Notes: generated by a model not told the origin, from the letters alone. Shown: positions 7,653-63,717, counted from the first letter of the stretch. The stretch is DNA of 64,000 nt from an uncultured Syntrophobacteraceae bacterium (GCA_964572145.1 CAZNES010000011.1:8687-72686); one strand, 5' to 3'. Translations and numbers: made by a program.

Positions 7653-7811
7653 ATGTGGTTGGACTACGACGAGAAGGTCGATGTTCTATACTTGCATTTT
7701 GAAGACCGACCAGGCTCAACACACAGCCAAATGCGGGATGACGGCGTCATCCTCGACTACAAGGGCCGCCGATTAGTAGGTGTCACCATCCTTGAGGCCT
7801 CCCAGCGATAA
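7653..7811 (+). CDS. DUF2283-family small protein
   Basis: The 52-aa ORF (shorter than the 60-aa track cutoff) MWLDYDEKVDVLYLHFEDRPGSTHSQMRDDGVILDYKGRRLVGVTILEASQR matches the DUF2283 pattern (YD.E.D.LYI...GVILDYD..G.LVGIEIL.AS.R). Confidence 0.65.
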   Translation: MWLDYDEKVDVLYLHFEDRPGSTHSQMRDDGVILDYKGRRLVGVTILEASQR

Positions 7812-7980
7812 GGAAGATTACCAGGCGGCGTTTATTTTAAATCCGACTCAGCCGGAAGAGATTATCGCCGTCACCGGCGCCGGCGAGAAGATGCCGCAGA
7901 AAACGACCTACTTCTATCCCAAGCTGATCTCTGGATTGGTGATCAACAAAATCGATCCGGCGGAAGAGATGCCGGAGTGA
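7807..7980 (+). pseudogene. diverged duplicate of the 3' end of the DUF1015 gene (gene fragment)
   Basis: KEDYQAAFILNPTQPEEIIAVTGAGEKMPQKTTYFYPKLISGLVINKIDPAEE parallels the C-terminus of the 6009-7346 product. The DNA at 7163-7330 versus 7809-7980 is roughly 80% identical. Confidence 0.8.
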
Positions 7981-11276: not shown

Positions 11277-12287
11277 ATGAGGCAAATACTCGGTTCGTTC
11301 TTTGCCGGGCTGGCACTGCTGGTCTTTGCAGCGGGTCCGAGCTTCGGCCAGGACGCGAAGCTCATCGAGGCGGGCAAAAAAGAAGGGAAAGTCGTCATCT
11401 ACGGCTCGCTTGAATCCGACACTATGGACACCGTGAGCAAGGCATTTCAAAAGAAAACCGGCATCGAGGTCGAGTACTGGAGAGCCTCGGCCACCAAAGT
11501 GATGGACCGGGCCGTGAGCGAGTACCGCGCGGGGAAACCCGGCTTCGACATTATCTTGACCAACGATAATCCCCTGCAGTTGATGCAAAAACAGGGAGTC
11601 TTCGCTAAGTACGACTCTCCGTCCGCCAAAGCTTTTCCGAAAGAAGCGATCGATCCCAATCTGGGCCCCAGATATCGCAACGTCGTGATCGGCGTCGTCT
11701 ACAATAAAAGCATAGTCAGTCCCGCCGACGCGCCGAAATCTCTCGAAGACCTGGTGAACCCTAAATACAAAGGCAAGCTCGTGATGCCGGATCCCACCCA
11801 GCACACGACTACGACACAGTGGGTCGCCAGTCTCGAAAAGCTGATGGGCAAAGAAAAAGCCGAGAAATATATTCGGGATCTCGCCGCCATGAAACCGATC
11901 CTGGTCGAGTCTCTGCTCCCGGCCGCGGAGCGCGTTTCGACGGGAGAGACGCCGATCGCGATCACCTACGTGAAATACGCTTACATCTTCGGTCAAAGAG
12001 GCGCGCCGTTGGATTACGTCCGGTTGGGAAAAATGATGGGTGACGGCCACTATCTGGCATTGGGCAACAAAGCTCCGCACGTCAACGCCGCCAAGACCTT
12101 CATCGACTATTTCCTCGGCGAGGAGAGCATGTCGATCATCGCCAAGATGGGCGAATTCGTCAATCGAAAAGGCGTCTATCCGCCGCTGCCGGATGCCGAT
12201 AAGATCCAGTTCGTCGAGATGTACGATCTCGACGAAAAAGGTTTTGCCGAGAAGAAGAAGGAGTACACTAAAATCTTTCTGCAATAG
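11277..12287 (+). CDS. ABC transporter periplasmic substrate-binding protein (FbpA/ThiB-type, solute-binding family 1)
   Basis: Signal peptide MRQILGSFFAGLALLVFAAGPSFG and SBP-like composition. It is followed by a fused two-domain permease. Confidence 0.7.
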   Translation: MRQILGSFFAGLALLVFAAGPSFGQDAKLIEAGKKEGKVVIYGSLESDTMDTVSKAFQKKTGIEVEYWRASATKVMDRAVSEYRAGKPGFDIILTNDNPLQLMQKQGVFAKYDSPSAKAFPKEAIDPNLGPRYRNVVIGVVYNKSIVSPADAPKSLEDLVNPKYKGKLVMPDPTQHTTTTQWVASLEKLMGKEKAEKYIRDLAAMKPILVESLLPAAERVSTGETPIAITYVKYAYIFGQRGAPLDYVRLGKMMGDGHYLALGNKAPHVNAAKTFIDYFLGEESMSIIAKMGEFVNRKGVYPPLPDADKIQFVEMYDLDEKGFAEKKKEYTKIFLQ

Positions 12288-28085: not shown

Positions 28086-28681
28086 TTTTCCAACTCCTGC
28101 GCGCTGATCTCCCCCTCGCGGATGATCCGGAGCTTACCTTCGATCAGTTCCACCACGGTTGAGCCTTTTCTTCCCGTCAGCATTCCTCTATCGAGGAAAA
28201 CCTCAATCTTATCGGCAAAGTAGCCGCGCGCCTCTTGAATCGCCCGGGCCGGTTCTTTTCCGGTCGGATTGGCGCTCGTCGCCGTTATCGGACGGCCCAG
28301 CTCGCGCGTTATGCGCGTCGCGATCGGATGACTGGAAATACGAACGCCGATTTTGCCTTCGCGGTTGAGCAGCGGCCCGGGCAGGCCGGGTTTTGCGGGC
28401 AGTATCAACGTCAATGGACCGGGCCAAAACCGGTCGATGAGTTTTTTCGCTAGCGCTGGAACATCGATCACGACTTGATCGAGCATCTCCCTATCTGCAA
28501 CGATCACCGCGATGGGACTGTCGGGATTTCTTCCTTTGATGGATACGATGCCCTCAACCGCGTCTCGATTGAGAGCATCCGCCCCCAGGCCGTAAAAAGT
28601 TTCGGTCGGAAAGACGATGACCTCGCCGCGCTTGAGCGCCCGCAGCGCGGCGGAAAAATTATCAGCGTTTTTGTCTTTCAC
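28076..28681 (-). CDS. tsaC: L-threonylcarbamoyladenylate synthase (TsaC/YrdC family)
   Basis: 201 aa. The YrdC-domain blocks (VFPTETFYGLG, KGR..D.PIAV, GPLT, TSAN.SG). Confidence 0.85.
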   Translation of the reverse strand: MKDKNADNFSAALRALKRGEVIVFPTETFYGLGADALNRDAVEGIVSIKGRNPDSPIAVIVADREMLDQVVIDVPALAKKLIDRFWPGPLTLILPAKPGLPGPLLNREGKIGVRISSHPIATRITRELGRPITATSANPTGKEPARAIQEARGYFADKIEVFLDRGMLTGRKGSTVVELIEGKLRIIREGEISAQELEKWI

Positions 28682-29180
28682 TCTGGAGCTTTTTGTCTTT
28701 GTCCAGCACGCCCGCGGTCATCTCTTGTTTGAACTGCACCAGCTTGGCCGCAATCTTGGGATCTTTACGGCCCAAGATCTCGGCAGCGAAAATTCCCGCG
28801 TTCGCCGCACCCACCTTGCCGATCGCCATGGTCGCAACCGGCACGCCAGCGGGCATCTGCACGGTTGCCAGCAGCGCGTCGAGTCCTTTAAGACTGGAAG
28901 AATCGATCGGCACGCCGATGACAGGAAGGGTTGTGTGCGCGGCGACGACGCCGGCGAGATGGGCCGCCGCACCCGCGCCGACGATGATCGCGTCGAGGCC
29001 TCTCTCCGTCGCCGATTCGGCATATTTCCGGGTTTCGTGCGGCGTCCGATGCGCCGAGAGAACGCGCGTCTCGTACGGGATGCCGAAATAATCGAGCCGC
29101 TTTTCCGCCTCTCTCATCACTTCAAGGTCCGAGTCGCTGCCCATCAAAATCCCCACCTTAGGGCTAGACCGCGTGCTCAT
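28662..29180 (-). CDS. purE: N5-carboxyaminoimidazole ribonucleotide mutase
   Basis: 172 aa. The PurE motif VGILMGSDSDLEVM. Confidence 0.9.
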   Translation of the reverse strand: MSTRSSPKVGILMGSDSDLEVMREAEKRLDYFGIPYETRVLSAHRTPHETRKYAESATERGLDAIIVGAGAAAHLAGVVAAHTTLPVIGVPIDSSSLKGLDALLATVQMPAGVPVATMAIGKVGAANAGIFAAEILGRKDPKIAAKLVQFKQEMTAGVLDKDKKLQSERQKR

Positions 29181-29194
29181 TCTTCCCCTCCCCT

Positions 29195-29290
29195 ATTTTC
29201 GATTTTCAATTTTTGGATTTTATTTTCAATCGAAAATCGGCTCAGCCCGAGGCTGATCAGTCCTCTGGCTGAAATCGAAAATCTAAAATT
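29195..29290. repeat. palindromic intergenic repeat (REP/MITE-like) between purE and purD
   Basis: The TCGATTTTCAAT / ATCGAAAATCGG / GAAATCGAAAATCT arms flank the core TCAGCCCGAGGCTGATCAG. The same core is found at 56328 and 63045. Confidence 0.5.
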
Positions 29291-30557
29291 TCTTTAACGC
29301 TCGCCGCGCAATGTCTCTGCGGTAATGCATGCCATCCCATTTTATTTTGGCGACCGCTTCATAAGCCTCTGTGACGGCTGCCTTGATATCCGCTCCCAAT
29401 GCAGTCACACCCAGGACGCGGCCGCCCGCAGTCAACCAACGGCCCTCCTTCTTAGTCGTGCCGGCGTGAAAGACACAGCCGCACGGCCAATCCTTCAGCG
29501 CGTCTAATCCCGTGATCTCTTTTCCCTTGTCGTAAGATCCCGGGTAGCCGCCCGCGGTCAACACGACACAAACGGCCGCGGCGTTTTCCCACTCGGCCTG
29601 CACCTGATCCAGCCTGCCGTCGATGGTCGCTTCGATCAAAGGCACGAGATCGCTTTTGAGCCGGAGCATCAGCGGCTGGCATTCCGGATCGCCGAAGCGC
29701 GCGTTAAATTCCAAAACTTTCGGCCCAACGGCGGTCAGCATCAAGCCGACGTAGAGCACGCCGCGGTAAAGGATGTCTTTTTTCTTCAACCCTTTCAGCA
29801 GCGGCTCAAGAATCTCGGTCATGATGCGGCGATGGATCTCGGGCGTGACGACCGGCGCGGGCGAATAGGCGCCCATCCCGCCGGTGTTCGGTCCTTCATC
29901 GCCGTCGAAGACCCGCTTGTGGTCCTGCGACGAGGCGAGCGAAAGAATATGCTCGCCGTCGGTCAGGACCATGAAGGACGCTTCTTCGCCTTCCAAAAAC
30001 TCTTCGATAACGACCTTGTCGCCCGCAGCGCCGAAAAGCTTTCGCACCAGGACATCGTCGATCGCCGCTTCCGCTTCATCGCCGCTCGCGCAGATGAGAA
30101 CTCCTTTTCCCGCCGCGAGGCCGTCGGCCTTGATGACATAGGGCGGCTTTTGACCGGCGAGATATATTTTCGCCGCCGCCGCTTCCGAAAAAGTCGCGAA
30201 CGCCGCGGTGGGAATGTGGTTCTCTTGCAAGATTTGTTTGGCGAACGCCTTGCTGCCTTCGAGCTTCGCCGCTTCGCGGCCGGGAGCGAAAATCCGAAGC
30301 CCCCTTTTTTGAAATAATTCAGCGATGCCCAGCGTCAGCGGCAGCTCGGGACCGACGACGGTAAGGTCTATCTTTTCCTTTTCTGCGAAAGCAGAAAGTT
30401 TGTCGATTTCTTCAACCCTGATCGATACCAGCTCGGCGGTCTCACCGATAGCCGCGTTTCCCGGCGCGCAGAAGATTTTTTTTACTTGCGGGCTCCGCGC
30501 GAGCTTCCAAACCAGAGCGTGCTCTCTCCCGCCGCCGCCAATGACAAGAATTTTCAT
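29283..30557 (-). CDS. purD: phosphoribosylamine--glycine ligase
   Basis: 424 aa. ATP-grasp and the PurD N-terminal MKILVIGGGGREHAL. Confidence 0.95.
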   Translation of the reverse strand: MKILVIGGGGREHALVWKLARSPQVKKIFCAPGNAAIGETAELVSIRVEEIDKLSAFAEKEKIDLTVVGPELPLTLGIAELFQKRGLRIFAPGREAAKLEGSKAFAKQILQENHIPTAAFATFSEAAAAKIYLAGQKPPYVIKADGLAAGKGVLICASGDEAEAAIDDVLVRKLFGAAGDKVVIEEFLEGEEASFMVLTDGEHILSLASSQDHKRVFDGDEGPNTGGMGAYSPAPVVTPEIHRRIMTEILEPLLKGLKKKDILYRGVLYVGLMLTAVGPKVLEFNARFGDPECQPLMLRLKSDLVPLIEATIDGRLDQVQAEWENAAAVCVVLTAGGYPGSYDKGKEITGLDALKDWPCGCVFHAGTTKKEGRWLTAGGRVLGVTALGADIKAAVTEAYEAVAKIKWDGMHYRRDIARRALKKF

Positions 30558-40928: not shown

Positions 40929-41004
40929 GGGGCCGTAGCTCAGCTGGGAGAGCGTCGCGTTCGCAACGCGAAGGTCAGGGGTTCGACTCCCCTCGGCTCC
41001 ACCA
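40929..41004 (+). tRNA. tRNA-Ala (CGC)
   Basis: GGGGCCGTAGCTCAGCTGGGAGAGCGTCGCGTTCGCAACGCGAAGGTCAGGGGTTCGACTCCCCTCGGCTCCACCA. The G3:U70 identity pair is present, the anticodon is CGC and CCA is encoded. Confidence 0.9.
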
Positions 41005-41200
41005 TTCGACTCGCGGGCATAACGCCCGCTCGCTCATGGCAGGCCATTCAGGACTAACCCACTCATCGAGGCGAATGGTGCCCTGAGCAACGTCGAAGGG
41101 CTATCGGGTTCTTCGACTCGCCTGAAAGAACTCAGGCTCGCTCATGGCAGGCCATTCTCGGATTCATCTCGGTTTCGAGTCGAAGGGCCGTCTAGCAATG
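41005..41200 (+). repeat. tandem direct repeat (two units of ~107 bp) abutting the tRNA-Ala 3' end
   Basis: TTCGACTCGC...GCTCGCTCATGGCAGGCCATTC occurs at 41005-41047 and 41112-41158. GTCGAAGGGC also recurs. Confidence 0.6.
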
Positions 41201-41246
41201 CGATTTCTTTTGCGCTAATTTGCTGGAGTCGCAGGAGGGCACTCTA

Positions 41247-41909
41247 ATGGATCGGCGCAAATTCCATTTTGAACCGTTTGAAGCTCTAATTGTCTGCTGC
41301 GGCATTGTGTCGCTCTTGTTGGCCGTCTCCGGCTGCTCGAGCGTCCAGGGACAAATAGAAGCCGGCCGGAGGGATTTGCTTTACGGCGATCCAAACCTCG
41401 CGACGGCATATTTCGAGCGAGCGGCGGAGACGGCCCCCGATCGGCTTTATTTCAGCGTGCTCCCGGAAGGATCGTTGACCTACTTAGGACGCGGGTACTA
41501 CGCCACGGGAAAACTTCCCGAGGCGCGCCAGGCATTGGAGCGCGCCGTCTCCCGCTACGAGCAGGACAATCTTGCCAAGCTCTACCTGGGCCTGGTGCGC
41601 GTGCGCCAGGGAGACCGGGAGCGCGGACTGCGGGAGGTCGAAAGCGGCCTGCGCGGCATTCACGACTGGATCGAATACGTCGCACAGCGTTTCGCGTTTT
41701 CCTACGGCCGCTTCTGGGACCCCGGCAGACCGATCCGTAAACAGATCGAAGCGGACCTCGCCATGATCTCCTCGGGAAAAGTCGATGGGTCCAAACTCAT
41801 CGCCGACGCCGAGTGGGTGGGGAGACAGATAGAAGAGGAGATCGACCGCGCGCGCCGGGACGAAACCGACGATAGGTTCAGGGACGGCGACAACGGGGGC
41901 CGCCGGTAG
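41247..41909 (+). CDS. hypothetical lipoprotein (TPR-like)
   Basis: MDRRKF..LLLAVSGCSS lipobox. No family recognised. Confidence 0.45.
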   Translation: MDRRKFHFEPFEALIVCCGIVSLLLAVSGCSSVQGQIEAGRRDLLYGDPNLATAYFERAAETAPDRLYFSVLPEGSLTYLGRGYYATGKLPEARQALERAVSRYEQDNLAKLYLGLVRVRQGDRERGLREVESGLRGIHDWIEYVAQRFAFSYGRFWDPGRPIRKQIEADLAMISSGKVDGSKLIADAEWVGRQIEEEIDRARRDETDDRFRDGDNGGRR

Positions 41910-42335
41910 AAAAGTGATATCTCCGCGCTTGCCGCAGGCGCGAATCGAAACGGCCGGCCTTGCCTTTCCCTCCTTCCGCTACAACCATCTTTCTGCACGA
42001 TCGCCGTTTGTCACCTGACAACCTGGCCCTTTAATCATTGAGAGATCCCATCTCGACAACGGATCTCTCTCTGCCCTTTTATCTGCTTTCACCAATCTTG
42101 TTCGCAGTGACTGGTCCACGATTGTTCTTGTTCTGGCAAAGCGAAAGGTTTTTGGATATGTTGCTCGCCGGGCCACAATCAACCTGGAGGCAACTTTGGA
42201 GGGTTCAACTCAACGTGGAGGCATCATGACAAATTGGCTTTGGCTGGGTTCAGCTGTTCTCCTCTGTGTACAGCGGGCCGTCCTCCATCTCGCCAACGTT
42301 TCTATCTCCCCTTGGTAGGTGACACTGATTGGCCA

Positions 42336-42411
42336 CTAACCGTAGCTCAGTTGGGAGTGCGCTAGAATCACGCTCTAGAGGTCGGGGGTTCGACTCCTCT
42401 CGGCTCCACCA
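42336..42411 (+). other. tRNA-like chimera / pseudo-tRNA (Val-CAC-type anticodon arm, tRNA-Ala-type 3' end, non-pairing acceptor 5' strand)
   Basis: The D arm GTAGCTCAGTTGGGAG, the anticodon arm CTAGA-ATCACGC-TCTAG (CAC) and the T arm plus 3' end GGGGGTTCGACTCCTCTCGGCTCCACCA differ by only one nucleotide from the tRNA-Ala 3' end at 40973-41004. The 5' seven nucleotides CTAACCG cannot pair with CGGCTCC. Confidence 0.45.
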
Positions 42412-55917: not shown

Positions 55918-56244
55918 TTACCCAATCACATTTCCGATCGCCTGGACGAGCTTCGCCTTGGGGACGGCGCCGACGAGCTGTTCCTTTACCGTGCCGCCTT
56001 TAAGGATGAGCAGGTTGGGAATTCCGCGCACGCCGTAGCGCGACGGCGTGACGGGATTGTCGTCCACGTTGAGCTTGGCGACCTTGAGCTTGCCGTCGTA
56101 CTCCCCTGCCAATTCTTCGACGATGGGCGCGATGGCTTTGCACGGCCCGCACCACGGCGCCCAAAAATCCACCAGCACGGGCAAGTTCGACTTGAGCACT
56201 TCCGCCTCGAAGTTCGCATCGGTTAGTTGTGTAATATTCGCCAT
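55918..56244 (-). CDS. trxA: thioredoxin
   Basis: 108 aa. The WAPWCGPCK active site. Confidence 0.95.
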   Translation of the reverse strand: MANITQLTDANFEAEVLKSNLPVLVDFWAPWCGPCKAIAPIVEELAGEYDGKLKVAKLNVDDNPVTPSRYGVRGIPNLLILKGGTVKEQLVGAVPKAKLVQAIGNVIG

Positions 56245-56289
56245 GATGATTCCTTTCTTTGAATTTCACCGTTAAACATTCTCTCCGTC

Positions 56290-56470
56290 GGGCGCCTTCT
56301 CCCTTCGCGCCTCTTCCTTCGTTTGCTTCGTGTCAGCCTGAGGCTGATCAGCCTCTCTTTTTGGCCGATCCTTCGTGGTCGAAAAGTTTATCACCACAAA
56401 GAGCACGAAGGTCACGAAGTTTTGAACGCCTCGCGCCAAGACGCAAAGAATGCATTCCTCATCTACAGTG
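56290..56470. repeat. MITE-like repeat, copy A (palindromic core TCAGCCTGAGGCTGATCAGCCTC with CTTCGTG/CACGAAG arms)
   Basis: About 90 nt are near-identical to 63040-63130. The arm motifs are shared with 58862-59183. Confidence 0.6.
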
Positions 56471-56638
56471 TGTCACGATCTTTCCTCGGACATGAATCAT
56501 GCAGGCTAGGAGCGTGTCCGAGTAATCCAAAAATCGCCGGTTTAGGGGGTAGGAAAACCATTCCCGAACCGCCGTTCGTTGATCCTGGGGCATTCTACGA
56601 GGTCGAGTTTTGACGAAAGACATTACACGGACAGGCTC

Positions 56639-58117
56639 CTAGAGGCTTGATAAGAACCGAAGCAACGTACGCACGCCGAAGCCGGTGCCGCCCTTGGGAG
56701 AAGTGAGCATTTCCTTCTCCGCGAACGCCGGGCCGGCGATATCGAGATGCGCCCACGGCACGCTATCGACAAACTCTTGGAGAAGGAGGGCCGCGGTGAT
56801 CGCGCCGCCATAGGACCCGCCGATATTTTTCATGTCCGCAACGCTGCTTTTGATCTCGTCGCGATATTCTTTGACTAGAGGAAGCTGCCAGAGCTTCTCG
56901 CCGGATTCCTTGCCCGAGCGGATTAGAGCGTCCGCGAGCGGCTGATGGTTGCTGAACACTCCGGCGACTTCCGTGCCCAACGCGACCATGCAGGCGCCGG
57001 TGAGCGTGGCGAGGTTGATCATGTAGTCGGGTTTTTGTTTGGCGGCCAGCGCCAGGGCGTCGGCGAGAATCAATCTCCCCTCGGCGTCGGTGTTGAGCAC
57101 CTCGATCGTCTTGCCGTTCAGATAACGGATGATATCGCCCGGCTTTTGCGCACTGCCGCTCGGCAAATTATCGGTGGTCGGAATATAGCCGGTCACCTGG
57201 ACCGGCAGCCTAAGCTCGGGCAACCGGCTCATGGCGCCGATGATCGCCGCGCCGCCCGCCATATCGAGCTTCATGGTTTCCATCGATTTGGACGGCTTCA
57301 ACGACAGTCCGCCGGAGTCGAAGGTAATCCCCTTGCCGATGAGGGCGATTTTTTTCTTCGCTCTCGCCGCGGGGCGATAGCGAATCACGATAAAGCGCGG
57401 CTCTTCCGTGCTGCCGCGATTGACCGCCAGAAGTCCGGCCAGATTCATCGCCGCGATTTTCCTCTTGTTCCACACCTCGACGCTGAGGCCGCGGCCGCGG
57501 CAATGGCGCTGCGCCTGCTCGCCCAGATAACGCGCGGTGGCGATCGACGGCGGCTCGTTCACGAGATCGCGCGCCAGCGACACGCCGGGAAAGATGTCGA
57601 GCGCGAGCTTGACCGCGCGCGCGATGCCTTCGCCTCTCCTGAGGCCGGAACGAAACAGAATCAACGACCGGAGCGCGGCGGGCGGCTTGGGCTCCGACCG
57701 ATACTTGTCGAACTGATAGGAAGCCAGCAAAACACCCTCGACGATCGAGCCGGCGGAGGACTCCGGCTCCCGGTCGGGAGAAAAGAAAAACGCCATCTCC
57801 TCGGCGCCGAGCGCCGAAGTTTCTTTGCGCGCGCGCGCGCCGGCTTTTCTCCAGGAGTCGGCGGTCACTTCTTCGGCTTTGCCGAGTCCGATCAGGACGA
57901 GATTTGCCGCCGGAATTCTGCCCGCGGTGCCGTAAACGAGCGCGCTTGCATCGGCGCCCGTGAACCGGCTTTTCCTGATGCGCTCGCCGAGCCCGCCGTG
58001 AAGCAGACGATCCAGCCGCCGGATCACGGGCGCGTCGATCTGTTTCTCTTTGACCGGAATAGCCAACAGTTCGGTTTTGATCCGCTCCGGATGTTGATCT
58101 TGAAATTTTATTTCCAT
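56639..58117 (-). CDS. pepA: leucyl aminopeptidase (M17)
   Basis: 492 aa. The M17 catalytic-domain motifs (NTDAEGRL, GGAIIGA..). Confidence 0.9.
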   Translation of the reverse strand: MEIKFQDQHPERIKTELLAIPVKEKQIDAPVIRRLDRLLHGGLGERIRKSRFTGADASALVYGTAGRIPAANLVLIGLGKAEEVTADSWRKAGARARKETSALGAEEMAFFFSPDREPESSAGSIVEGVLLASYQFDKYRSEPKPPAALRSLILFRSGLRRGEGIARAVKLALDIFPGVSLARDLVNEPPSIATARYLGEQAQRHCRGRGLSVEVWNKRKIAAMNLAGLLAVNRGSTEEPRFIVIRYRPAARAKKKIALIGKGITFDSGGLSLKPSKSMETMKLDMAGGAAIIGAMSRLPELRLPVQVTGYIPTTDNLPSGSAQKPGDIIRYLNGKTIEVLNTDAEGRLILADALALAAKQKPDYMINLATLTGACMVALGTEVAGVFSNHQPLADALIRSGKESGEKLWQLPLVKEYRDEIKSSVADMKNIGGSYGGAITAALLLQEFVDSVPWAHLDIAGPAFAEKEMLTSPKGGTGFGVRTLLRFLSSL

Positions 58118-58133
58118 CCCCTGACCTCTTTCC

Positions 58134-58694
58134 CTACCCCTGCGGGCGAATCAAATTCATGAACTCGTTGCGCGTCTCCTGGCGGGTGCGGAAGGCGCCG
58201 AGCAGTGTGCTGGTGATGATCAAGGAATTCTGCTTTTCCACGCCGCGCATTCTCATGCAGAGGTGCTCCGCCTCAATGACGACTCCCACTCCGAGCGGGT
58301 TGAGCTTTTCCATCAACGTTGTGGCGATCTGATTGGTCAGCCGCTCCTGCACTTGGAGTCTGCGGGCGAACACGTCGACGACGCGCGCGAGCTTGGAAAC
58401 GCCGATGATCTTGTGCTGCGGGAGGTAAGCCACGTGCGCCTTGCCAAAGAACGGCAGCAAATGGTGTTCGCAGAGGGAATAAAAATCGATGTTCTTCTGG
58501 ACGATCATCTCCGAGTAATCTTCGGTGAAAACGGCGTTGTTGATCACCTCGTCCAGGTTCATTTTGTAACCACGCGTCAGAAATGAAAGCGCTTCGCTTA
58601 CGCGCTTGGGCGTCCAGCGCAATCCTTCGCGATCGGGATCTTCGCCTATCGATTTAAGGAGCGAGCGGATGTGTTCTTCCATTGGCTTCTCCAC
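58134..58694 (-). CDS. folE: GTP cyclohydrolase I
   Basis: 186 aa. The CEHHLLPF zinc-site motif. Confidence 0.92.
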
Positions 58695-58861
58695 GGAGTC
58701 TGAGTTAGTGGAACGCGATCGAAAAGTTTTCGGCGGCGCTGAAAAAAGTTATCACTTCGACCGAGGGAGGTCAAACAAAGCAGTACGCAAAGCAGTACGC
58801 AGTAAGCAGTAGGCGGTAAAGACCCGAAGATTTCTTTGCTGCTTACTGCTGACTGCCTTCT

Positions 58862-59183
58862 GCCTACTAGTGTAGTGTCTCACGCCGTTGACACCTTATC
58901 CTAAGTTCGACAGGCGAAGTGGAGTCTGCCACCACGAAGGACACGAAGAGCACGAAGGAAGATAAAATCATGCTTGGCGGCCTTTGCGCCTTTGCGCGAA
59001 ACAATCCGAGACGAACCGGTGCGCCAAGCGCACCCTACGAAAACCTTCGTGTCCTTCGTGCCTTCGTGGTGAATCCTACTTTTCTCATTTTGGTTGCGGC
59101 TTTGCCACGCTGTGCGCTTCGTGGTGAATAGAGAAAGCTTGAAGGATAAGTGCTTTAATTTAAGAGGCGCTACACTAGAGTCT
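58862..59183. repeat. MITE-like element with terminal inverted repeats (ACTAGTGTAG / CTACACTAGAG) and internal long inverted arms of CACGAAG repeats
   Basis: Outer TIRs at ~58866-58876 and ~59170-59181. Inner arms ACCACGAAGGACACGAAGAGCACGAAGG (58931-58959) and CCTTCGTGTCCTTCGTGCCTTCGTGGTG (59052-59079). A CTTTGCGCCTTTGCGCG block resembles the copy C block at 63180-63215. Confidence 0.55.
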
Positions 59184-59921
59184 TTTATACAGCCACTGCG
59201 GCGTGAAACGGATGGCGTAGGTGTTTAGGAAGGTCATATAGTCAGTAACAAGGAGAATCCCCACAACAACCAACAGGAAACCAGCGCCCATATGGACGGC
59301 GTGAATGTAGCGGCGAAAGCTTGTGAAAAAAAGAAAAAACGAATTTAACGCCACCGCGCTGAGAAAAAACGGAACGGCCAGCCCCGCAGCGTAAGTGGTG
59401 AGCAGCAACATTCCCATGTTGATCTCTGCTGAGGTCCCGGCCAAAGTCAGAATCGATCCCAAGATCGGGCCGACGCACGGAGTCCACGCCACGGCAAAGG
59501 TGAGGCCGATCAGCACCGATCCGAGATAGCCGACGGGCTTGTCCCTCAGATGGTTCAACTGAAACTGCAGGTAGCGGCCCAACAGCGGAATTTTCAAAAC
59601 CCCCAGGAGATAGGCCCCCACAAAAATGATGAGAATCCCGCCGACGATGCGGATGATCTTACGGTATCCCAAAAACAGGCTTCCCAAAAAGCTCGCCGAA
59701 GCACCGAAGGAGATAAAGATCAATGAGAAGCCGAAGATAAACGCAAGCGAGTTTGAAATCACGCGCCAGCGCACTTGGCTTGTGACTTGAGCGGCGCGCA
59801 TCTCTTCCAAGGAAACGCCCGAGATGAACGAGAGATAGGAAGGAACAAGCGGCAGCACGCAAGGAGAGAGAAAGGAAAGCACCCCGGAAGTAAAAGCGAC
59901 TATAAAGTTGATTTCGCTCAT
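59175..59921 (-). CDS. ccdA: cytochrome c-type biogenesis protein CcdA (DsbD transmembrane-domain family)
   Basis: 248 aa. The two conserved Cys segments LSPCVLPLVP and WTPCVGPILG. Confidence 0.9.
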   Translation of the reverse strand: MSEINFIVAFTSGVLSFLSPCVLPLVPSYLSFISGVSLEEMRAAQVTSQVRWRVISNSLAFIFGFSLIFISFGASASFLGSLFLGYRKIIRIVGGILIIFVGAYLLGVLKIPLLGRYLQFQLNHLRDKPVGYLGSVLIGLTFAVAWTPCVGPILGSILTLAGTSAEINMGMLLLTTYAAGLAVPFFLSAVALNSFFLFFTSFRRYIHAVHMGAGFLLVVVGILLVTDYMTFLNTYAIRFTPQWLYKRL

Positions 59922-60484
59922 CGCTTGCCGTCGAGCAGATCCTGAATGAGCTGCTTGGCGCCCGCGCTATCCCACTGAGCCGGTCCCCACATTCTCGCTA
60001 GGCCCTCGCCCTTGGGGCCGATCAGATAAGTCGCGGGCAACCCCCAAGCTCCATAAAGAAGACCCACTTCGCCGTCCGGATCGAGCATGACCGGATAGGT
60101 GATTTTGAGTTCCTTTAGGAAGGCGACTGCGTCCTTAGGGTTGTCTTTCACGTCCACGGCGAGAATCGTGAATCCCTTGCTTTTATACTGCTGGTAGAGC
60201 CGCTCCATCGCGGGCATCTCTTCCCGGCAGGGAAGGCACCAAGTGGCCCAAAAATTGAGCAGGACCAATTTGCCGCGAAAATCTTTCAGCGCGCCTTTTT
60301 TTCCGGACAGATCGGCAAGGGTAAAATCGGGAGTCGGCGAACTGTCCTTCGTCGGCTCCAGATTGGGAACGACCTTGTAGTTCAGCCCGGGAGCGCGACC
60401 GCTCTGGCCCCAACTCTCTCCGTTTCCAAGCCAAAGAGCCAAAAGCAGAAGAAAAAACAATCCTATGAACCGCTGGCTAATCAT
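59918..60484 (-). CDS. TlpA/ResA-like periplasmic thiol:disulfide oxidoreductase
   Basis: Signal peptide, the thioredoxin-fold WCLPC active site (FWATWCLPCREEMP). ATGA overlap with ccdA. Confidence 0.85.
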   Translation of the reverse strand: MISQRFIGLFFLLLLALWLGNGESWGQSGRAPGLNYKVVPNLEPTKDSSPTPDFTLADLSGKKGALKDFRGKLVLLNFWATWCLPCREEMPAMERLYQQYKSKGFTILAVDVKDNPKDAVAFLKELKITYPVMLDPDGEVGLLYGAWGLPATYLIGPKGEGLARMWGPAQWDSAGAKQLIQDLLDGKR

Positions 60485-60486
60485 AT

Positions 60487-61029
60487 CTAACGTTGATTGA
60501 TTTTCTTCACCTCTTTCAGTAGCTCGTCAGTGGAAATAAGGTCTTGTTCTCCATTGCTGGGCCTAACGCTCTTAAAACGGACGACCCCTTCCTTGTCGAT
60601 AATAAAATAGGACCGCTTGGTACGGCGTGTTGCTTCATCAAATATACCAAAGGCCTTCACAACCTTTTGATCCTGAATATCGCTGAGAAGGGGGTAATTC
60701 AATTTCAGAAAATCCGCAAAGGCCTTCTGGGAAAAGGTTGCGTTGGCACTTATGCCTAAGACCTCGGTGTTCTCTATCTCAAACTTTGTATAATTGTCCG
60801 CACCGGACGACAGAATATGCGTGATTCAGGTCGGGCTATAGTCCAGCAAGTAAAAATTAATCAGCACATTCTTTCCCCGAAGGCTACTCAGCTTGATTTT
60901 TCCTCCCTTCGTGCTGGGAAGTTCAAAGTCCGGCGCCTTATCTCCTACCTCCACCGCGAGGAGCAGAGTCGGAGACAGGAGAAGCACGAGGGCCAGAAAG
61001 ATTGATATGGTAGATCGCTTTCTCTTCAT
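60487..61029 (-). CDS. secreted Prx/AhpC-type peroxiredoxin with an in-frame TGA at the peroxidatic Cys position (candidate selenoprotein; otherwise a pseudogene)
   Basis: Signal peptide, then VGDKAPDFELPS...NVLINFYLLDYSPT-[TGA at 60826-60828]-ITHILSSGADNYTKF...KRSYFIIDKEGVVRFKSV. The two track ORFs (60826-61029 and 60487-60702) are in one frame. FYLLDYSPTUITH aligns with AhpC FYPLDFTFVCPTE. Confidence 0.6.
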
Positions 61030-61161
61030 AGCTTCCTCCTTTCGAAAACTATTTTACTCTAGCGGGCTCATGACGGAGAAGCAACACTTCTCATTTATCA
61101 GGCGGCTGACAAACCTTGTCCTTAGGCCGGTGAAAAAAGATCCCCGGAGCAAGGCTCTCGA

Positions 61162-62139
61162 TCACTTTATTACTTTATCCGCCCGCACGAGCAGGTTGGG
61201 CGGAATCGTCAGACCGATTCGCTTCGCTGCCTGGAGGTTGATGACCAGCTCGAAGCGCATGGGCTGCTCTATGGGCAGGTCGCTCGGCTTGGTCCCTTTC
61301 AGTATCTTGTCCACATAGGTCGCTGCGCGCCTGTACAAGTCGGCATCGTTCGGCCCATAGGATATGAGGCCGCCAGCGTCCACAAAATCCCTTGTCTGGA
61401 ACAGTGTCGGAAGGCCCCTTTTTGTCGCGAGGTCCACGATCCGTGATTGGTGAGTAATAGTGAGGGTGTCCGTCAGCGTAAAAAGAGCGCCGCCGCGCTT
61501 GCTGTTAGCGGTTCGGAATGCGCTTTCGAGATCGTTGGGACCCCGCGCCTCCAGGGATTGAAGCTGCAACCCCAACGTCCTTGCCGCGACCTGCGTCTCT
61601 TCGAGATCGCGGGCCTTGTCAGGATTGGCCGCGTTCCAGAGGACGGCCACACGGGAGAGTCCGGGAACTGCCTCTTTAAGGAGCTCGAGCCGTTTCCCGC
61701 TTAGCTCCCGGGCCAAGGCAGTTAGGCCCGTGACGTTCCCTCCTGGCCGCGCAAGGCTGGCGACGAGCCCCGTAGCAACAGAATCGCCACTGGCGGCCAT
61801 GACGATGGGAATCGTCCTGGTCGCTCGCTGGGCAGCAACGGCATCTAGCGTACCCGGCGTCACAATGACCTCAACCTTGAGACGGACCAGCTCAGCAGCG
61901 AGATCGAAGAGCCGATCGAGCTTTCCCTGTGCAAGTCGGTACTCAATGGCGATGTTCTTTCCCTCAACATAGCCTAGCTCGCGTAAGCCTTGGCGAAATG
62001 CCTCCTCGAGGGGCCCGAGCCCGGAGGCGGAGGTCAGATAACCTATTTTGCGGACTTTCGTCGGCTGCTGCGCTTCTGCTTGCGCCGGACCTCCGCACAG
62101 TGCCAGCATAATTAAAAGAAGACCAAGACTCTTTCTCAT
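61162..62139 (-). CDS. ABC-transporter substrate-binding protein (ABC_sub_bind / COG2984-type)
   Basis: Starts at MRKSLGLLLIMLALCGGPAQA (signal peptide). The periplasmic-binding fold blocks (KIGYL.., VEVIVTPGT). The upstream extension of the track ORF is not supported. Confidence 0.65.
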   Translation of the reverse strand: MRKSLGLLLIMLALCGGPAQAEAQQPTKVRKIGYLTSASGLGPLEEAFRQGLRELGYVEGKNIAIEYRLAQGKLDRLFDLAAELVRLKVEVIVTPGTLDAVAAQRATRTIPIVMAASGDSVATGLVASLARPGGNVTGLTALARELSGKRLELLKEAVPGLSRVAVLWNAANPDKARDLEETQVAARTLGLQLQSLEARGPNDLESAFRTANSKRGGALFTLTDTLTITHQSRIVDLATKRGLPTLFQTRDFVDAGGLISYGPNDADLYRRAATYVDKILKGTKPSDLPIEQPMRFELVINLQAAKRIGLTIPPNLLVRADKVIK

Positions 62140-62176
62140 AGCGCCTGAAGTTTCCGTCCGATGATTGTCCTGATCC

Positions 62177-63010
62177 TTACTCCCGTTCAGCAAACTCCGC
62201 AAGAAGGATTCCCTCGCCCGCTTTCTTGACGATCCAGCGGTGAATGTCTCTGACGATCTCTTCTCCGCCGCCTGCGCCACCCATGATCCAGTGGCCGTGG
62301 CCGGCGTAGTCGCGAAAATCCGCGCCGATCCGATCGGCGAGCTGCCGCAGCGACGCCGGCGGCGCGACTCGATCTTCGCCGGCGGCAACGACCAAGGCGG
62401 GCGGGCGAACCGCCATGAGATCGAGTTGCACGCGGCGCTCGAAGAACTCGCGGACAAGATGCGTGGAATCAACGACCAGACATCGGAGCGGCTCCAGATG
62501 CTCGCCGGGCGGCAGCGCGTTGAGCCAATGCTTGCGGAAATCTTTTTCATCGAGGCGAAAGGGCCGCCCCAAGAAAAGGAGCGGCGAATATTTTAACCGC
62601 AAAAGCCGGAGCGCGCGCGGCAACTCCGGCATCGCCGCTCTCGAAGGCAAGCTTGCAAGCAGCACCAACGCGGAGGTTTCTACTTGCCCAGCGGCCTTCT
62701 GCGCCACGAGCCCTCCCAAATCGTGTGCCAGGAGCACCGGCGGAAATTCGCTTGCGCGGATAACTTCTTTGAGATCGTCGACGCAGTCCTGAAAGCTCAA
62801 TCGGCTCAGAACCTCGAGCGCATTTTTTTCGTATCGGCCCCTGAAATTTACCGACCAGCACTCCCAACCTAAATTCGAAAAATGCGTCGCCCAGGAGCGC
62901 CAGCAGCGGCCGGAGGTCCACAACCCATGAACCAAGATCAGCGGGCATTTGAACTTCGCTCGCTCGGGAGACGAGACATCGAGGAGAATGTTGCCGATCC
63001 ACTTTTCCAT
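62177..63010 (-). CDS. alpha/beta-hydrolase family protein
   Basis: The start is taken at MEKWIGNILLDV. ILVHGLW (HG oxyanion) and LAHDLGG (nucleophile elbow). The track ORF's N-terminal extension runs into the repeat element. Confidence 0.65.
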   Translation of the reverse strand: MEKWIGNILLDVSSPERAKFKCPLILVHGLWTSGRCWRSWATHFSNLGWECWSVNFRGRYEKNALEVLSRLSFQDCVDDLKEVIRASEFPPVLLAHDLGGLVAQKAAGQVETSALVLLASLPSRAAMPELPRALRLLRLKYSPLLFLGRPFRLDEKDFRKHWLNALPPGEHLEPLRCLVVDSTHLVREFFERRVQLDLMAVRPPALVVAAGEDRVAPPASLRQLADRIGADFRDYAGHGHWIMGGAGGGEEIVRDIHRWIVKKAGEGILLAEFAERE

Positions 63011-63029
63011 GAGCAAGCCCGGATTGGTG

Positions 63030-63260
63030 TTTTCTTCCTTCGAGACCTTCGTGTCAGCCTGAGGCTGATCAGCCTCTCTTTTTGGCTGATCCTTCGTGGT
63101 CAAAATCTTCTCACCACGAAGAGCACGAAGTTTGGATCATTCATCGGACCAAGATCGCAGCGTTTCCTCGCGATTCTTTTTCCTTGGCGTCCTTTGCGTC
63201 TTTGCGCGAGAGAACGCATTTCGGTCCTTCTCTGTTATCGCGCCAAGACGCCAAGCTCGC
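63030..63260. repeat. MITE-like repeat, copy C
   Basis: 63040-63130 is near-identical to 56317-56410. The downstream TTGGCGTCCTTTGCGTCTTTGCGCG resembles copy B. Confidence 0.6.
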
Positions 63261-63717
63261 AAAGTTTTAATAGCGAATTGGAGTGCAAAATAACAAGGCC
63301 CTCACGGTTTGCCCGGAGGGCCTTGCACTTTGGGCAGCCAGGACGGCTACCCTATCGCCTGAGATGAGGAGGGTTTAACTCACCGCCGCCACACCACAAC
63401 CAAGCTGTTTACTTTTTCTTTTTCTTCTTGGCTTTTTTCTTTGCTGCCATAGGCGCCTCCTTCTTGGATTCCCCTGAACGGGGCATCTACGCTGGAGGTA
63501 GGAGTTGTCACTCAGGCGAACAGATTTTCTTTAAACCCTCCTACATTTGGTAGATGTGGACATTATAAAGACGCTAGTAATAGTGTGTCAAGAAAAAAAT
63601 GGCATTTTATTAGAATTGATGGAAATTTGTCGCGGGCAGTCTGTCCGGACTTTTCTATCGGCAGGCGCGAAATGTTTCCCGATGAAAGGAGCGGCGCGGA
63701 CGAATCGCCTGTCAGCT

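Follow-up and report, generated by a model that had tools for sequence, protein, structure and literature searches.

The intergenic repeats of the window, a 64,000-nt stretch of DNA from an uncultured Syntrophobacteraceae bacterium, probably form a BIME-like mosaic. Its units would be miniature, non-autonomous mobile elements, in at least three independent layers that lie one within another. The first layer would be a conventional MITE (element B). The second would consist of short-period arrays (CACGAAGNN, CTTNGCG and GAAAATC units) that form hairpin arms and may also serve as landing pads or recombination junctions, and the third would be a 30- to 36-bp double-hairpin core, mobile in its own right. 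The first-pass annotation had already suggested non-autonomous mobile elements, and in this it agrees with our findings. It had, however, proposed one MITE-like family whose members share a core and arms. Instead, element B has terminal inverted repeats (TIRs) and a target duplication (TSD) but no core, composites A and C contain the core but lack a recognizable TSD, and the core and the CACGAAG arms are independent modules that also occur in other genomes. The coordinates are given in the table.

Table. Repeat features of the window (positions counted from its first nucleotide)
Feature	Position	Strand	Description
Core-only copy	29242..29272		TCAGCC-CGA-GGCTGA-TCAGTC-CTCT-GGCTGA; between purD (29283-30557, -) and purE (28662-29180, -)
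Arms around the purD-purE core	29195..29296		GAAAATC/GATTTTC short-period; AATCGAAAATC direct repeat on both sides
Outer arms of A-type unit	56290..56453	-	CTTNGCG-type arrays, e.g. 56430-56453 CTCGCGCCAAGACGCAAAGAATGC
Composite A (A-subtype)	56310..56425	-	CTTCGTG arrays, hairpin 3 and double-hairpin core; between pepA stop and trxA start, upstream of trxA
Core of A	56333..56368		TCAGCC-TGA-GGCTGA-TCAGCC-TCTCTTTTT-GGCCGA, two tandem hairpins
Hairpin 3 of A	56371..56401	-	CTTCGTGGT ... ACCACAAAG; U.G wobble retained on gene-sense strand
Left TSD copy of B	58867..58870		CTAG
Element B	58871..59174	-	304 bp, assigned to the MITEs, TIR TGTAG(T/C)G; inserted at ccdA stop codon
Right TSD copy of B	59175..59178		CTAG; holds ccdA stop TAG (minus strand)
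Composite C (C-subtype)	63033..63130	-	End 20 nt upstream of hydrolase ATG (63010)
Core of C	63054..63089		TCAGCC-TGA-GGCTGA-TCAGCC-TCTCTTTTT-GGCTGA
Arrays upstream of C	63181..63262	-	CTTTGCG/CTTGGCG short-period; hairpin-forming (predicted fold)

As first described, all copies were intergenic, and Pfam supported the identity of the neighboring trxA, folE, ccdA (DsbD_TM), alpha/beta hydrolase, purD and purE genes. These genes are encoded by the minus strand, which places the elements upstream of trxA, of folE and of the hydrolase gene, and not after trxA as had been stated. The ORFs at 56323-56613, 58919-59131 and 62882-63367, which had been suspected to be spurious, gave no Pfam match. Similarly, the suspected 5' extension of 62177-63103 is spurious, since the hydrolase start at 63010 (ATGGAAAAGTGG) is conserved in the orthologues.

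Composites A and C were confirmed to be nearly identical: 56312-56384 and 63033-63105 shared 92% identity over 73 nt, and 56382-56410 and 63102-63130 shared 86%. The palindrome at the center of the A core is GGCTGATCAGCC. The outer arms of A have an inverted match at 63187-63210, form an outer stem in the predicted fold and were also found in L247, while the arrays upstream of C show a TRF period of 9 at 63181-63206 and have a homologous block in L235. The 19-mer TCAGCCNGAGGCTGATCAG was present three times in the window (29242, 56333 and 63054), compared to 0.02 times in dinucleotide shuffles. The CACGAAG/CTTCGTG heptamer was found 19 times against 10.9 expected, with 3 of 100 shuffles reaching 19, and 14 of these occurrences fell inside the three intergenic loci.

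We then compared these sites with those of related genomes, whose flanking proteins are 79 to 86% identical to those of the window. The pepA-trxA spacer lacked A in all three syntenic relatives (L235, L236 and L237), where it measures 89 to 129 nt instead of 394 nt. The site of C was filled by a nearly identical copy in L235 and empty in L236 and L237, and in L245 the core was present at this site next to a different left module. Furthermore, L247 and L248 carry A-subtype composites elsewhere, and an exact 28-mer spanning the core and the arm was recovered from 17 metagenome contigs that come from several related populations rather than from one genome. Taken with the window copies, the composite had at least 17 distinct flanks and two subtypes. 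Many of the metagenome matches lay at contig ends. The empty sites in relatives and the composite at at least 17 sites in related contigs rule out that the repeats are confined to the window loci; they are dispersed, as the first-pass annotation had anticipated. At the sequence level, this shows that array, hairpin and core of the A/C composite moved as one unit to many sites. The composite has no recognizable TSD: its arms are imperfect arrays rather than defined TIRs, no common duplication was seen among the flanks of the 17 sites, and the left modules vary between copies.

Element B is different. It is located between ccdA and folE, upstream of folE, and contains (CACGAAGNN)3 arms at 58929-58959 and 59044-59073, a CTTTGCG block and a small hairpin (TTGCGGCTTTGCCACGCTG) at 59094-59112. 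Its ends had been read as 10- to 12-bp inverted repeats (ACTAGTGTAG...CTACACTAGAG). Inverted ends are indeed present, but they are limited to TGTAG(T/C)G (TGTAGTG... / ...GCGCTACA), and the rest corresponds to a 4-bp CTAG target duplication. Likewise, the CCTTTGCG blocks thought to be shared by B and C are similar but not identical. The B site was uninterrupted in all three relatives (L235, L236 and L237), with a spacer of 116 to 161 nt compared to 480 nt in the window, and alignment of the window junctions (AGACT-CTAG-[B]-CTAG-TAGGCAG) with L235 (AGATTG-TAG-TAGGCAG) indicated a CTAG duplication of 3 or 4 bp. The left end of B was also found after CTAG in L252 and after CTAA in L242, within different flanks, and these two and the window copy are the three copies seen. 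Judged by these features, element B is a conventional MITE, separate from the core and from the A/C composite. Its mobilization would have depended on a DDE transposase acting in trans. Its CTAG/CTAA target is similar to YTAR, at which elements of the IS5 group insert. A search for a cognate transposase by Pfam gave none among the few low-GC3 window ORFs tested.

The core has the consensus TCAGCC-NRA-GGCTGA-TCAGCC-TYN-GGCTGA. It comprises two inverted 15-nt hairpin units with 6-bp stems (T-NN-GCC/GGC-N'N'-A) and loops of about 3 nt, and as a whole it is a near-perfect 30-bp palindrome centered on GATC. Between purE and purD, where a core with different arms had been pointed out, we found a core-only copy; an orthologous copy is present in the Binatia genome L071, and the same composite is located elsewhere in L109 and L046. 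In L252 and L242, a 36-nt core separates ACCACGAAGGA from CACGAAGAGCACGAAGG in the B-type left end, two sequences that are directly joined at the same place in the window copy of B. The A core has the same junctions (AAGGA^core^CACGAAG) as this filled site. A core in L034 has a variant unit (TCCGCC-TCT-GGCGGA) nested at its center. The flanks of the core share direct similarity (longest common substring of 6.4 versus 5.0 in controls) and no inverted similarity, and thus the core sits inside tandem arrays. They are T-rich on the 5' side, the left flank often being TT, and A/G-rich on the 3' side. The three resolved insertion sites are AAGAT^G, TCAAC^A and AAGGA^C.

The core was also found within coding sequences. 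A 30-nt core corresponds to 10 codons, and four of its six frames are open. The GH67 glucuronidase of L040 displays an exact 10-residue gap when aligned to 1h41 and is 730 aa long, compared to 719 to 720 aa for seven aligned close homologues (77 to 81% identical); all seven lack the insert and have a methionine where it splits an ATG codon in L040. Similarly, the DPP-IV peptidase of L044 shows an exact 10-residue gap in its alignment to 8hay and harbors a second 30-nt insertion in the signal-peptide region. Further copies are located in the C-terminal tails of other ORFs. A GH2 protein (L014) gave no clean insertion gap and was left uncounted. These alignments show, as far as sequence comparison goes, that the core inserts precisely, adding exactly its own length without target duplication, and that its targets have included CACGAAG arrays, other repeats between genes, and coding sequences.

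Among the matches listed, stem variants were compensatory (TCCGCC/GGCGGA six times, TGCGCC/GGCGCA and TTCGCC/GGCGAA twice each), with about none in shuffled sequences. Intrastrand pairing thus appears to be favored over a fixed duplex sequence, which indicates that the stem structure of the core is under selection.

The full double hairpin was present in about 65 of the 112 genome-contig matches listed, covering at least 12 phyla. Among these matches, the hosts include Binatia, Planctomycetota, a PVC MAG, Omnitrophota, about eight Patescibacteria lineages, Bacteroidota (with the isolate Marivirga aurantiaca and a closed MAG chromosome), Ignavibacteria, Chlorobi, Chloroflexota, Armatimonadota, and delta- and gammaproteobacterial MAGs, and the GC content of the host loci ranges from 32.5% to 66%. 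The genes beside the listed copies have nothing in common, and 9 sense versus 17 antisense copies reveal no clear orientation preference. BLAST gave no real match to INPHARED phages or PLSDB plasmids and there was one match in IMG/VR, so that carriage by phages or plasmids is unsupported and the core has no known vehicle. On the other hand, at least 120 IMG/VR contigs carry the (CACGAAGNN)3 arms, which unrelated genomes contain as well. The core was absent from 120 IMG/VR loci with CACGAAG arrays, indicating that the two modules are distributed independently, and no TSD was seen around the paired arrays of these loci. The literature gave no match for the core, its units or the arms, and sequence searches there returned only unrelated primers.

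The near-identity of the core across phyla is hard to reconcile with dependence on a lineage-specific enzyme. We tentatively raise the possibility, which we consider less probable than its alternatives taken together, that the core is an undescribed pan-bacterial "nano-transposon" (T-NN-GCC NNN GGC-N'N'-A, twice) inserting precisely and without TSD, including in frame in enzymes. Its agent might be a widespread hairpin-specific enzyme or a universal host process, such as replication or repair, acting on single-stranded DNA hairpins. Arrays such as (CACGAAGNN)n might be the sites where it lands by preference and, at the same time, another module that is shared.

Could the hairpin units instead be REPs, moved by a genome-encoded RAYT (an IS200-like Y1 transposase) as in a REP/BIME (REPIN) system? 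Short imperfect palindromes alternate in orientation in a BIME-like mosaic, the two inverted 15-nt units of the core resemble a miniature REPIN, insertion occurs without TSD, and the same spacer in the relatives contains GTAG-tagged REP-like hairpins (GTAGGGGCAGGC...GCCTGCCCCTAC). However, the core itself (TCAGCC...GGCTGA) carries neither a GTAG nor a CGTC tag, one of which characterizes most REP super-families (PMC3733652). Nor is it strictly extragenic, being found in GH67, twice in DPP-IV and in other ORF tails. Moreover, one sequence is common to at least 12 phyla among the matches listed, whereas REPs co-evolve with their own RAYT, and no RAYT was found in the DNA examined (loci of 8 to 21 kb and a few window ORFs). 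We thus regard this explanation as unlikely. The core also agrees with IS200/IS605-derived PATEs in its hairpin ends and in its exact TSD-less insertions of 30 or 36 nt. IS608 relies on external guide and cleavage sequences, for which there is no room beside the core.

Distinctly unlikely, too, is that the repeats are a functionally selected cis-acting RNA (a 5'-UTR or intercistronic regulator, an mRNA stabilizer or an sRNA) copied in front of several genes. Folding, as suggested by the first-pass annotation, placed A, B and the C locus far below shuffled controls (z = -4.2, -5.6 and -4.0, respectively), and folding was stronger for the sense than for the antisense strand. The composite has mostly the same direction as its neighbors (10:2 for the upstream and 9:4 for the downstream gene) and often lies 25 to 100 nt upstream of a start codon. 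In addition, one-sided G.U changes among 11 A/C copies retain pairing on the gene-sense strand, which could mean that the composite is selected as RNA and is not purely selfish. No double compensatory change was found in these copies, which are too similar to reveal covariation. Against this explanation, the repeats are present or absent at orthologous sites of close relatives, the downstream genes are unrelated, and the core occurs within coding sequences and in both orientations. Rfam detected only tRNAs in the whole window at the gathering threshold and nothing relevant at E <= 10 in 56245-56640 (locus A). The sense strand lacks promoter- or terminator-like signals: no hairpin followed by a U-tract was found on the gene-sense (minus) strand, and a weak terminator-like form (GAGGCTGATCAGCCTC+TCTTTTT, at 56340 and 63061) exists on the plus strand only. 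The earlier suggestion of an sRNA or terminator on the gene-sense strand is thus not borne out.

The near-perfect dyad with its GATC center, its conservation across phyla and the lack of a clear orientation preference would fit a protein-binding DNA site (12-6-12, TCAGCCNGAGGC-TGATCA-GCCTNNGGCTGA) of the tyrosine-recombinase or dimeric-regulator type, kept for a host function. We consider this highly improbable given the exact in-frame insertions in enzymes whose close homologues lack them, the insertion polymorphism within a MITE, the compensatory stem variants and the unrelated neighboring genes. XerCD/dif-like and integron attC-like sites were dropped, as the core had no similarity to their known consensus sites. 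Finally, the results refute local duplication and an artefact of assembly or adapters. The repeats have distinct flanks, are conserved at orthologous sites in assemblies made independently (the window, L235 and L071), occur in the genome of an isolate as well as in MAGs of both long-read and short-read origin from different groups, and sit in frame within otherwise intact genes. The many matches at contig ends are expected of any repeat.

Under the layered mosaic that we favor, the core would move via a single-stranded hairpin intermediate recognized by a trans-acting enzyme, comparable to the "peel and paste" of IS200/IS605 or REP-RAYT systems, and short-homology copying between arrays would probably contribute further. 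Where it lies between co-directional genes, the composite would be co-transcribed and fold into a four-way junction that may incidentally alter the stability of the mRNA or its translation. Such mosaics produce spurious ORFs, false 5' extensions and breaks in metagenome assemblies, and core insertions give proteins extra 10-residue loops. A 30-bp element that is constant across phyla at 33 to 66% GC and enters genes cleanly would be an extreme of minimal mobile DNA; if the nano-transposon hypothesis is true, no smaller mobile DNA would be known to be shared almost unchanged by at least 12 phyla. The core would point either to an unrecognized insertion mechanism of very wide distribution or to uncultured lineages that frequently exchange DNA.

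Like IS5-group-derived MITEs, element B and the element at 56506-56642 are at most a few hundred bp long and non-coding, with short terminal inverted repeats and a 4-bp CTAG/CTAA (YTAR-like) duplication. Unlike these, their interior is made of array and hairpin modules, and no matching IS ends or cognate IS5-family transposase were found. As in the REP/BIME/REPIN systems of Enterobacteria and Pseudomonas, paired inverted imperfect palindromes form mosaics between co-directional genes and are non-autonomous and without target duplication; the core differs in being only 30 bp long, untagged, cross-phylum, also present in coding sequence and found without a RAYT. The small dispersed repeats (SDRs) of Nostoc, reportedly described by Elhai et al. 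in 2008 (Genome Res 18:1484), are said to be 21 to 27 nt long, to lie in tandem heptamer repeats and to be described in cyanobacteria only. Going by description, they share with the core hairpin units of less than 40 nt and precise insertion in short-period tandem and other repeats, but the core spans phyla and enters ORFs. Rickettsia palindromic elements, selfish palindromic DNA of about 100 to 150 bp restricted to Rickettsia, likewise insert in frame in unrelated protein-coding genes and are translated as an extra peptide (PMC10969869), whereas the core has 30 bp (10 codons) and occurs in many phyla. Comparable elements are known from mitochondria, namely the double-hairpin elements (DHEs) of Allomyces, the GC clusters of yeast and the RHEs of sponges, whose mechanism is unknown (PMC2800124, PMC4478555). 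These also consist of two adjacent short hairpins, are mobile without flanking duplication (Allomyces) and, like the core, are both intergenic and inside genes, in their case coding or rRNA genes. Their sequences are unrelated to the core, which resides in free-living bacteria of many phyla and not in organelles. They pose the same question of mechanism, and bacteria with many copies of the core would make it testable.

Self-comparison of the window recovered all the repeat locations of the first-pass annotation: the near-identical blocks (56312-56384 vs 63033-63105, 92% identity; 56382-56410 vs 63102-63130, 86%), the shared 19-mer (TCAGCCNGAGGCTGATCAG, at 29242, 56333 and 63054, with an expectation of 0.02) and the heptamer clustering. 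Indeed, 19 CACGAAG/CTTCGTG heptamers were found in the window vs 10.9 expected, and 14 of them fall in three intergenic loci. Two of these loci are composite elements, A and C, built of CTTCGTG arrays, a hairpin (hairpin 3) and a double-hairpin core; the third is element B, and a core-only copy lies between purD and purE. Because the neighboring genes are all on the minus strand, each element is flanked by genes in the same orientation, on the upstream side of trxA, folE, the hydrolase gene or purE. The ORFs at 56323-56613, 58919-59131 and 62882-63367 had no match in Pfam. The hydrolase start at 63010 is kept in orthologues, so the extension of this gene to 63103 is spurious, as had been proposed from the sequence.

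Elements and neighboring genes in the window
Feature	Position	Strand	Basis or description
purE	28662-29180	minus	Pfam
purD	29283-30557	minus	Pfam
trxA	55918-56244	minus	Pfam
A	56310-56425		composite element
pepA	56639-58117	minus	precomputed Pfam calls and names of homologues
folE	58134-58694	minus	Pfam
B	58871-59174		304 bp, inverted ends TGTAG(T/C)G
DsbD_TM/ccdA	59175-59921	minus	Pfam
alpha/beta hydrolase	62177-63010	minus	Pfam
C	63033-63130		composite element

The protein homologues place the window in a Candidatus Binatia bacterium. We compared these sites with those of syntenic relatives, L235 and L236 (pepA 86% identical) and L237/L238 (79%). The gene order hydrolase ... redoxin - DsbD_TM - folE - pepA - trxA was common to all fetched relatives, and JGI metagenome 3300010391 has a contig that also encodes the pepA protein. 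The pepA-trxA spacer, which holds A, measures 394 nt in the window vs 89 to 129 nt in the relatives, none of which carries A. Similarly, the ccdA-folE spacer with B measures 480 nt vs 116 to 161 nt, and B is in none of them. Upstream of the hydrolase gene, a near-identical C is present in L235 and absent from L236 and L237, which have only a terminator-like hairpin near the ATG. This pattern is an insertion polymorphism at orthologous sites. Additionally, L235 harbors GTAG-tagged REP-like hairpins (GTAGGGGCGACC..., GTAGGGGCAGGC...GCCTGCCCCTAC; 11490-11560 and 11940-11975) within the pepA-trxA spacer and after trxA, so that different small elements fill one intergenic hot spot across lineages.

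Element B is an ordinary MITE with terminal inverted repeats and a target site duplication. On the gene strand its junctions read AGACT-CTAG-[TGTAGCGCC ... CACTACA]-CTAG-TAGGCAG, and the corresponding site of L235 reads AGATTG-TAG-TAGGCAG; the ccdA stop codon lies within the 4-bp CTAG duplication. The left end of B recurs at other sites, after CTAG in L252 and after CTAA in L242, a target that resembles the YTAR of the IS5 group. Element B has a strong fold (z = -5.6) and (CACGAAGNN)3 arms at 58929-58959 and 59044-59073, and the core is not present in the window copy. A second small MITE-like element, of 137 bp counting both CTAG copies, was seen at 56506-56642, with 17-nt inverted ends (GAGCGTGTCCGAGTAAT / ATTACACGGACAGGCTC) and without a counterpart in the three syntenic relatives. 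Its insertion point is the pepA stop codon, and the TAG stop thus lies within the duplicated CTAG. Directly upstream of folE, a hairpin with GCAGTA/AAGCAGT heptamer-array arms (58770-58860) has a homologous array in L235 and is therefore older than the B insertion.

The core is a separate element, inserted precisely, without target site duplication, and spread across phyla. In L252 and L242, the B-type left end is core-filled (...ACCACGAAGGA[TCGGCCAAAAAGAGAGGCTGATCAGCCTCAGGCTGA]CACGAAGAGCACGAAGGAAGAGAAAATCATG), and the window B is core-empty at the corresponding place (...ACCACGAAGGA|CACGAAGAGCACGAAGGAAGATAAAATCATG). The core is there a precise 36-nt insertion with no duplication, and its junctions are identical to those in A and C. 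Loci with a core also contain stem variants with compensatory changes (TCCGCC/GGCGGA, six occurrences; TGCGCC/GGCGCA, TTCGCC/GGCGAA and TGAGCC/GGCTCA), almost none of which occur in shuffled sequence, indicating that the hairpin is the conserved feature; a core of L034 has one such unit nested at its GATC center. The two flanks of a core show direct similarity and not inverted similarity (longest common substring 6.4 vs 5.0 in controls). Cores thus tend to sit within short-period tandem arrays, such as TTGAATG, AACTCC, TTTGGAAT and AATCGAAAATC, and CTTCGTG in the window. A single variant unit, TCCGCC-CAA-GGCGGA (7193-7207), was noted apparently within ORF 6009-7346, in the first copy of a 164-nt direct repeat (7158-7321 / 7807-7970; 82% identical, 649 nt apart). 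On a 1.9-Mb Binatia contig (L112, 5590-6080), apparent tandem tRNA genes flank three double-hairpin elements, of which one has a TCCGCC/GGCGGA unit.

A scan for the 19-mer in one genome per GTDB species matched at least 112 loci. Among the matches listed, about 65 have the full 30- to 31-nt TCAGCC-NGA-GGCTGA-TCAG(C/T)C-TYN-GGCTGA, and the remaining ones are chance coding matches in high-GC genomes. The second hairpin is outside the search pattern, and its presence is therefore not an ascertainment effect. Carriers among the matches listed belong to Binatia, Planctomycetota, Omnitrophota, many Patescibacteria, Ignavibacteria, Prosthecochloris, Chloroflexota and Armatimonadota, together with a PVC-group MAG (six contigs), proteobacterial MAGs and Bacteroidota that include the isolate Marivirga aurantiaca and a closed MAG chromosome. 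The GC content of core loci ranges from 32.5% to 66%. Searches of IMG/VR and of cultured phages and plasmids showed the core to be nearly absent there.

A 30-nt core adds ten codons, and it is stop-free in four of its six frames. A DPP-IV-like protein (L044) reads ...PADFDS[TQPKADQPQA]EKKYPVL..., with an exact 10-residue gap in Bacteroides DPP4 (8hay) opposite the bracketed insert; another 30-nt double hairpin lies in the signal-peptide region of its gene. Similarly, a GH67 alpha-glucuronidase (L040) carries an exact 10-residue insertion compared to 1h41. The insert is in none of the seven aligned close homologues (77 to 81% identical; 719 to 720 aa vs 730 aa), which have a Met at the point where it splits an ATG. 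No target duplication was found at the GH67 or DPP-IV insertion.

The A/C composite occurs at many sites and is polymorphic. The exact 28-mer GGCTGATCAGCCTCAGGCTGACACGAAG, which spans core and arm, matches 17 metagenome contigs, giving at least 17 distinct flanks (the 17 contigs, the window and L235). The loop of hairpin 3 tells apart an A type (window A, L247 and L248) and a C type (window C, L235, L240, L254, L255 and others). Copies vary in their left-hand module: some have CTTCGTG arrays, others the 19-nt hairpin TTGCGGCTTTGCCGCGCTG, also found within B, and L245, at the hydrolase site, an entirely different hairpin, which indicates that modules are exchanged at common CTTCGTGGTGA junctions. 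For 11 copies, RNAalifold gave a four-way junction as the consensus (a closing stem of 4 bp, hairpin 3 with 10 bp and the pair of core hairpins). No double compensatory changes occur among these copies, and several one-sided changes retain G.U pairs on the gene-sense strand, which also folds better (z = -4.2 vs -2.2 antisense). With crude ORF calls, composites were co-directional with their neighbors in ratios of 10:2 upstream and 9:4 downstream. Given this orientation bias and the wobbles on the sense strand, the composite may act at the RNA level, through mRNA structure in 5' UTRs or between cistrons. Read on the plus strand (antisense to the genes), the Binatia loop variant gives a weak terminator-like hairpin with a T-run after it.

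The CACGAAG arms are shared modules. The pattern tTTcAC-(CACGAAGNN)3-aaaa, frequently accompanied by an inverted partner that ends in GTGAA, was also seen in MAGs of the PVC group and unclassified ones (L100, L113, L053, L006) and in at least 120 IMG/VR contigs, in some cases five or six times per contig; none of these IMG/VR contigs had a core. In seven IMG/VR loci (L125, L127, L129, L131, L133, L139, L152), CACGAAG arrays often adjoin other short-period arrays (CAGTGAG, GTGAAAA, CACAGAG, GTCAGAA, AACGGCGACGGC, ACAGATGAAC), pointing to a set of array modules in environmental genomes that is far larger and has yet to be described. The window has a further array-armed, core-less hairpin, AT-rich and intergenic, at 875-942 (AATTTTG/AAATTCA heptamers; 32-nt arms, 81% complementary).

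Two other features of the window were observed. An AhpC/TSA-like ORF (60487-61029, minus strand) has a single in-frame TGA (...NFYLLDYSPT*ITH...) at what we presume to be the peroxidatic Cys position. L235 and L237 likewise have this gene as two ORFs, broken at the matching place, which suggests a putative selenocysteine peroxiredoxin rather than a pseudogene. The tRNA-Ala at 40929-41004 and a weak, truncated-looking tRNA-Val at 42337-42407 share a 3' end repeat (40972-41004 / 42379-42411, 94%), with an additional 29-nt repeat at 41021/41129; this stretch (40929-42411) may hold an integration-site remnant.

Overall, these data reveal a nested mosaic of non-autonomous insertions. The first-pass annotation was right to call the repeats mobile and non-autonomous; its single family is replaced by several nested elements, namely B, the A/C composite and the core. 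Short-homology copying between arrays could explain the spread of the core among arrays, but not the GH67 and DPP-IV insertions. We infer that the core would move as a single-stranded hairpin, in the manner of IS200/IS605 or REP-RAYT systems, a mechanism that fits its precise, duplication-free insertion and conserved hairpins. No enzyme for the insertion was identified in the fetched relative loci or the window ORFs checked.

The elements matched no Rfam family, and a literature search by sequence found no publication with them in the library covered. In form, REP/BIME/REPIN mosaics are among the closest analogues; they differ in having a GTAG/CGTC tag and a strictly extragenic location. Nostoc small dispersed repeats, reportedly located within heptamer arrays (Elhai 2008), are another. 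Rickettsia palindromic elements insert in frame, as does the core, and are about 150 bp long and genus-specific (PMC10969869). Mitochondrial double-hairpin elements and GC clusters, whose mechanism is unknown, are also analogues of the core in form; in Allomyces they have no flanking duplications (PMC2800124). The window's own elements are of known kinds, as new members or variants, and the unexpected part is the core, which A, C and the core-only copy share, which is kept across phyla and which can insert in frame.
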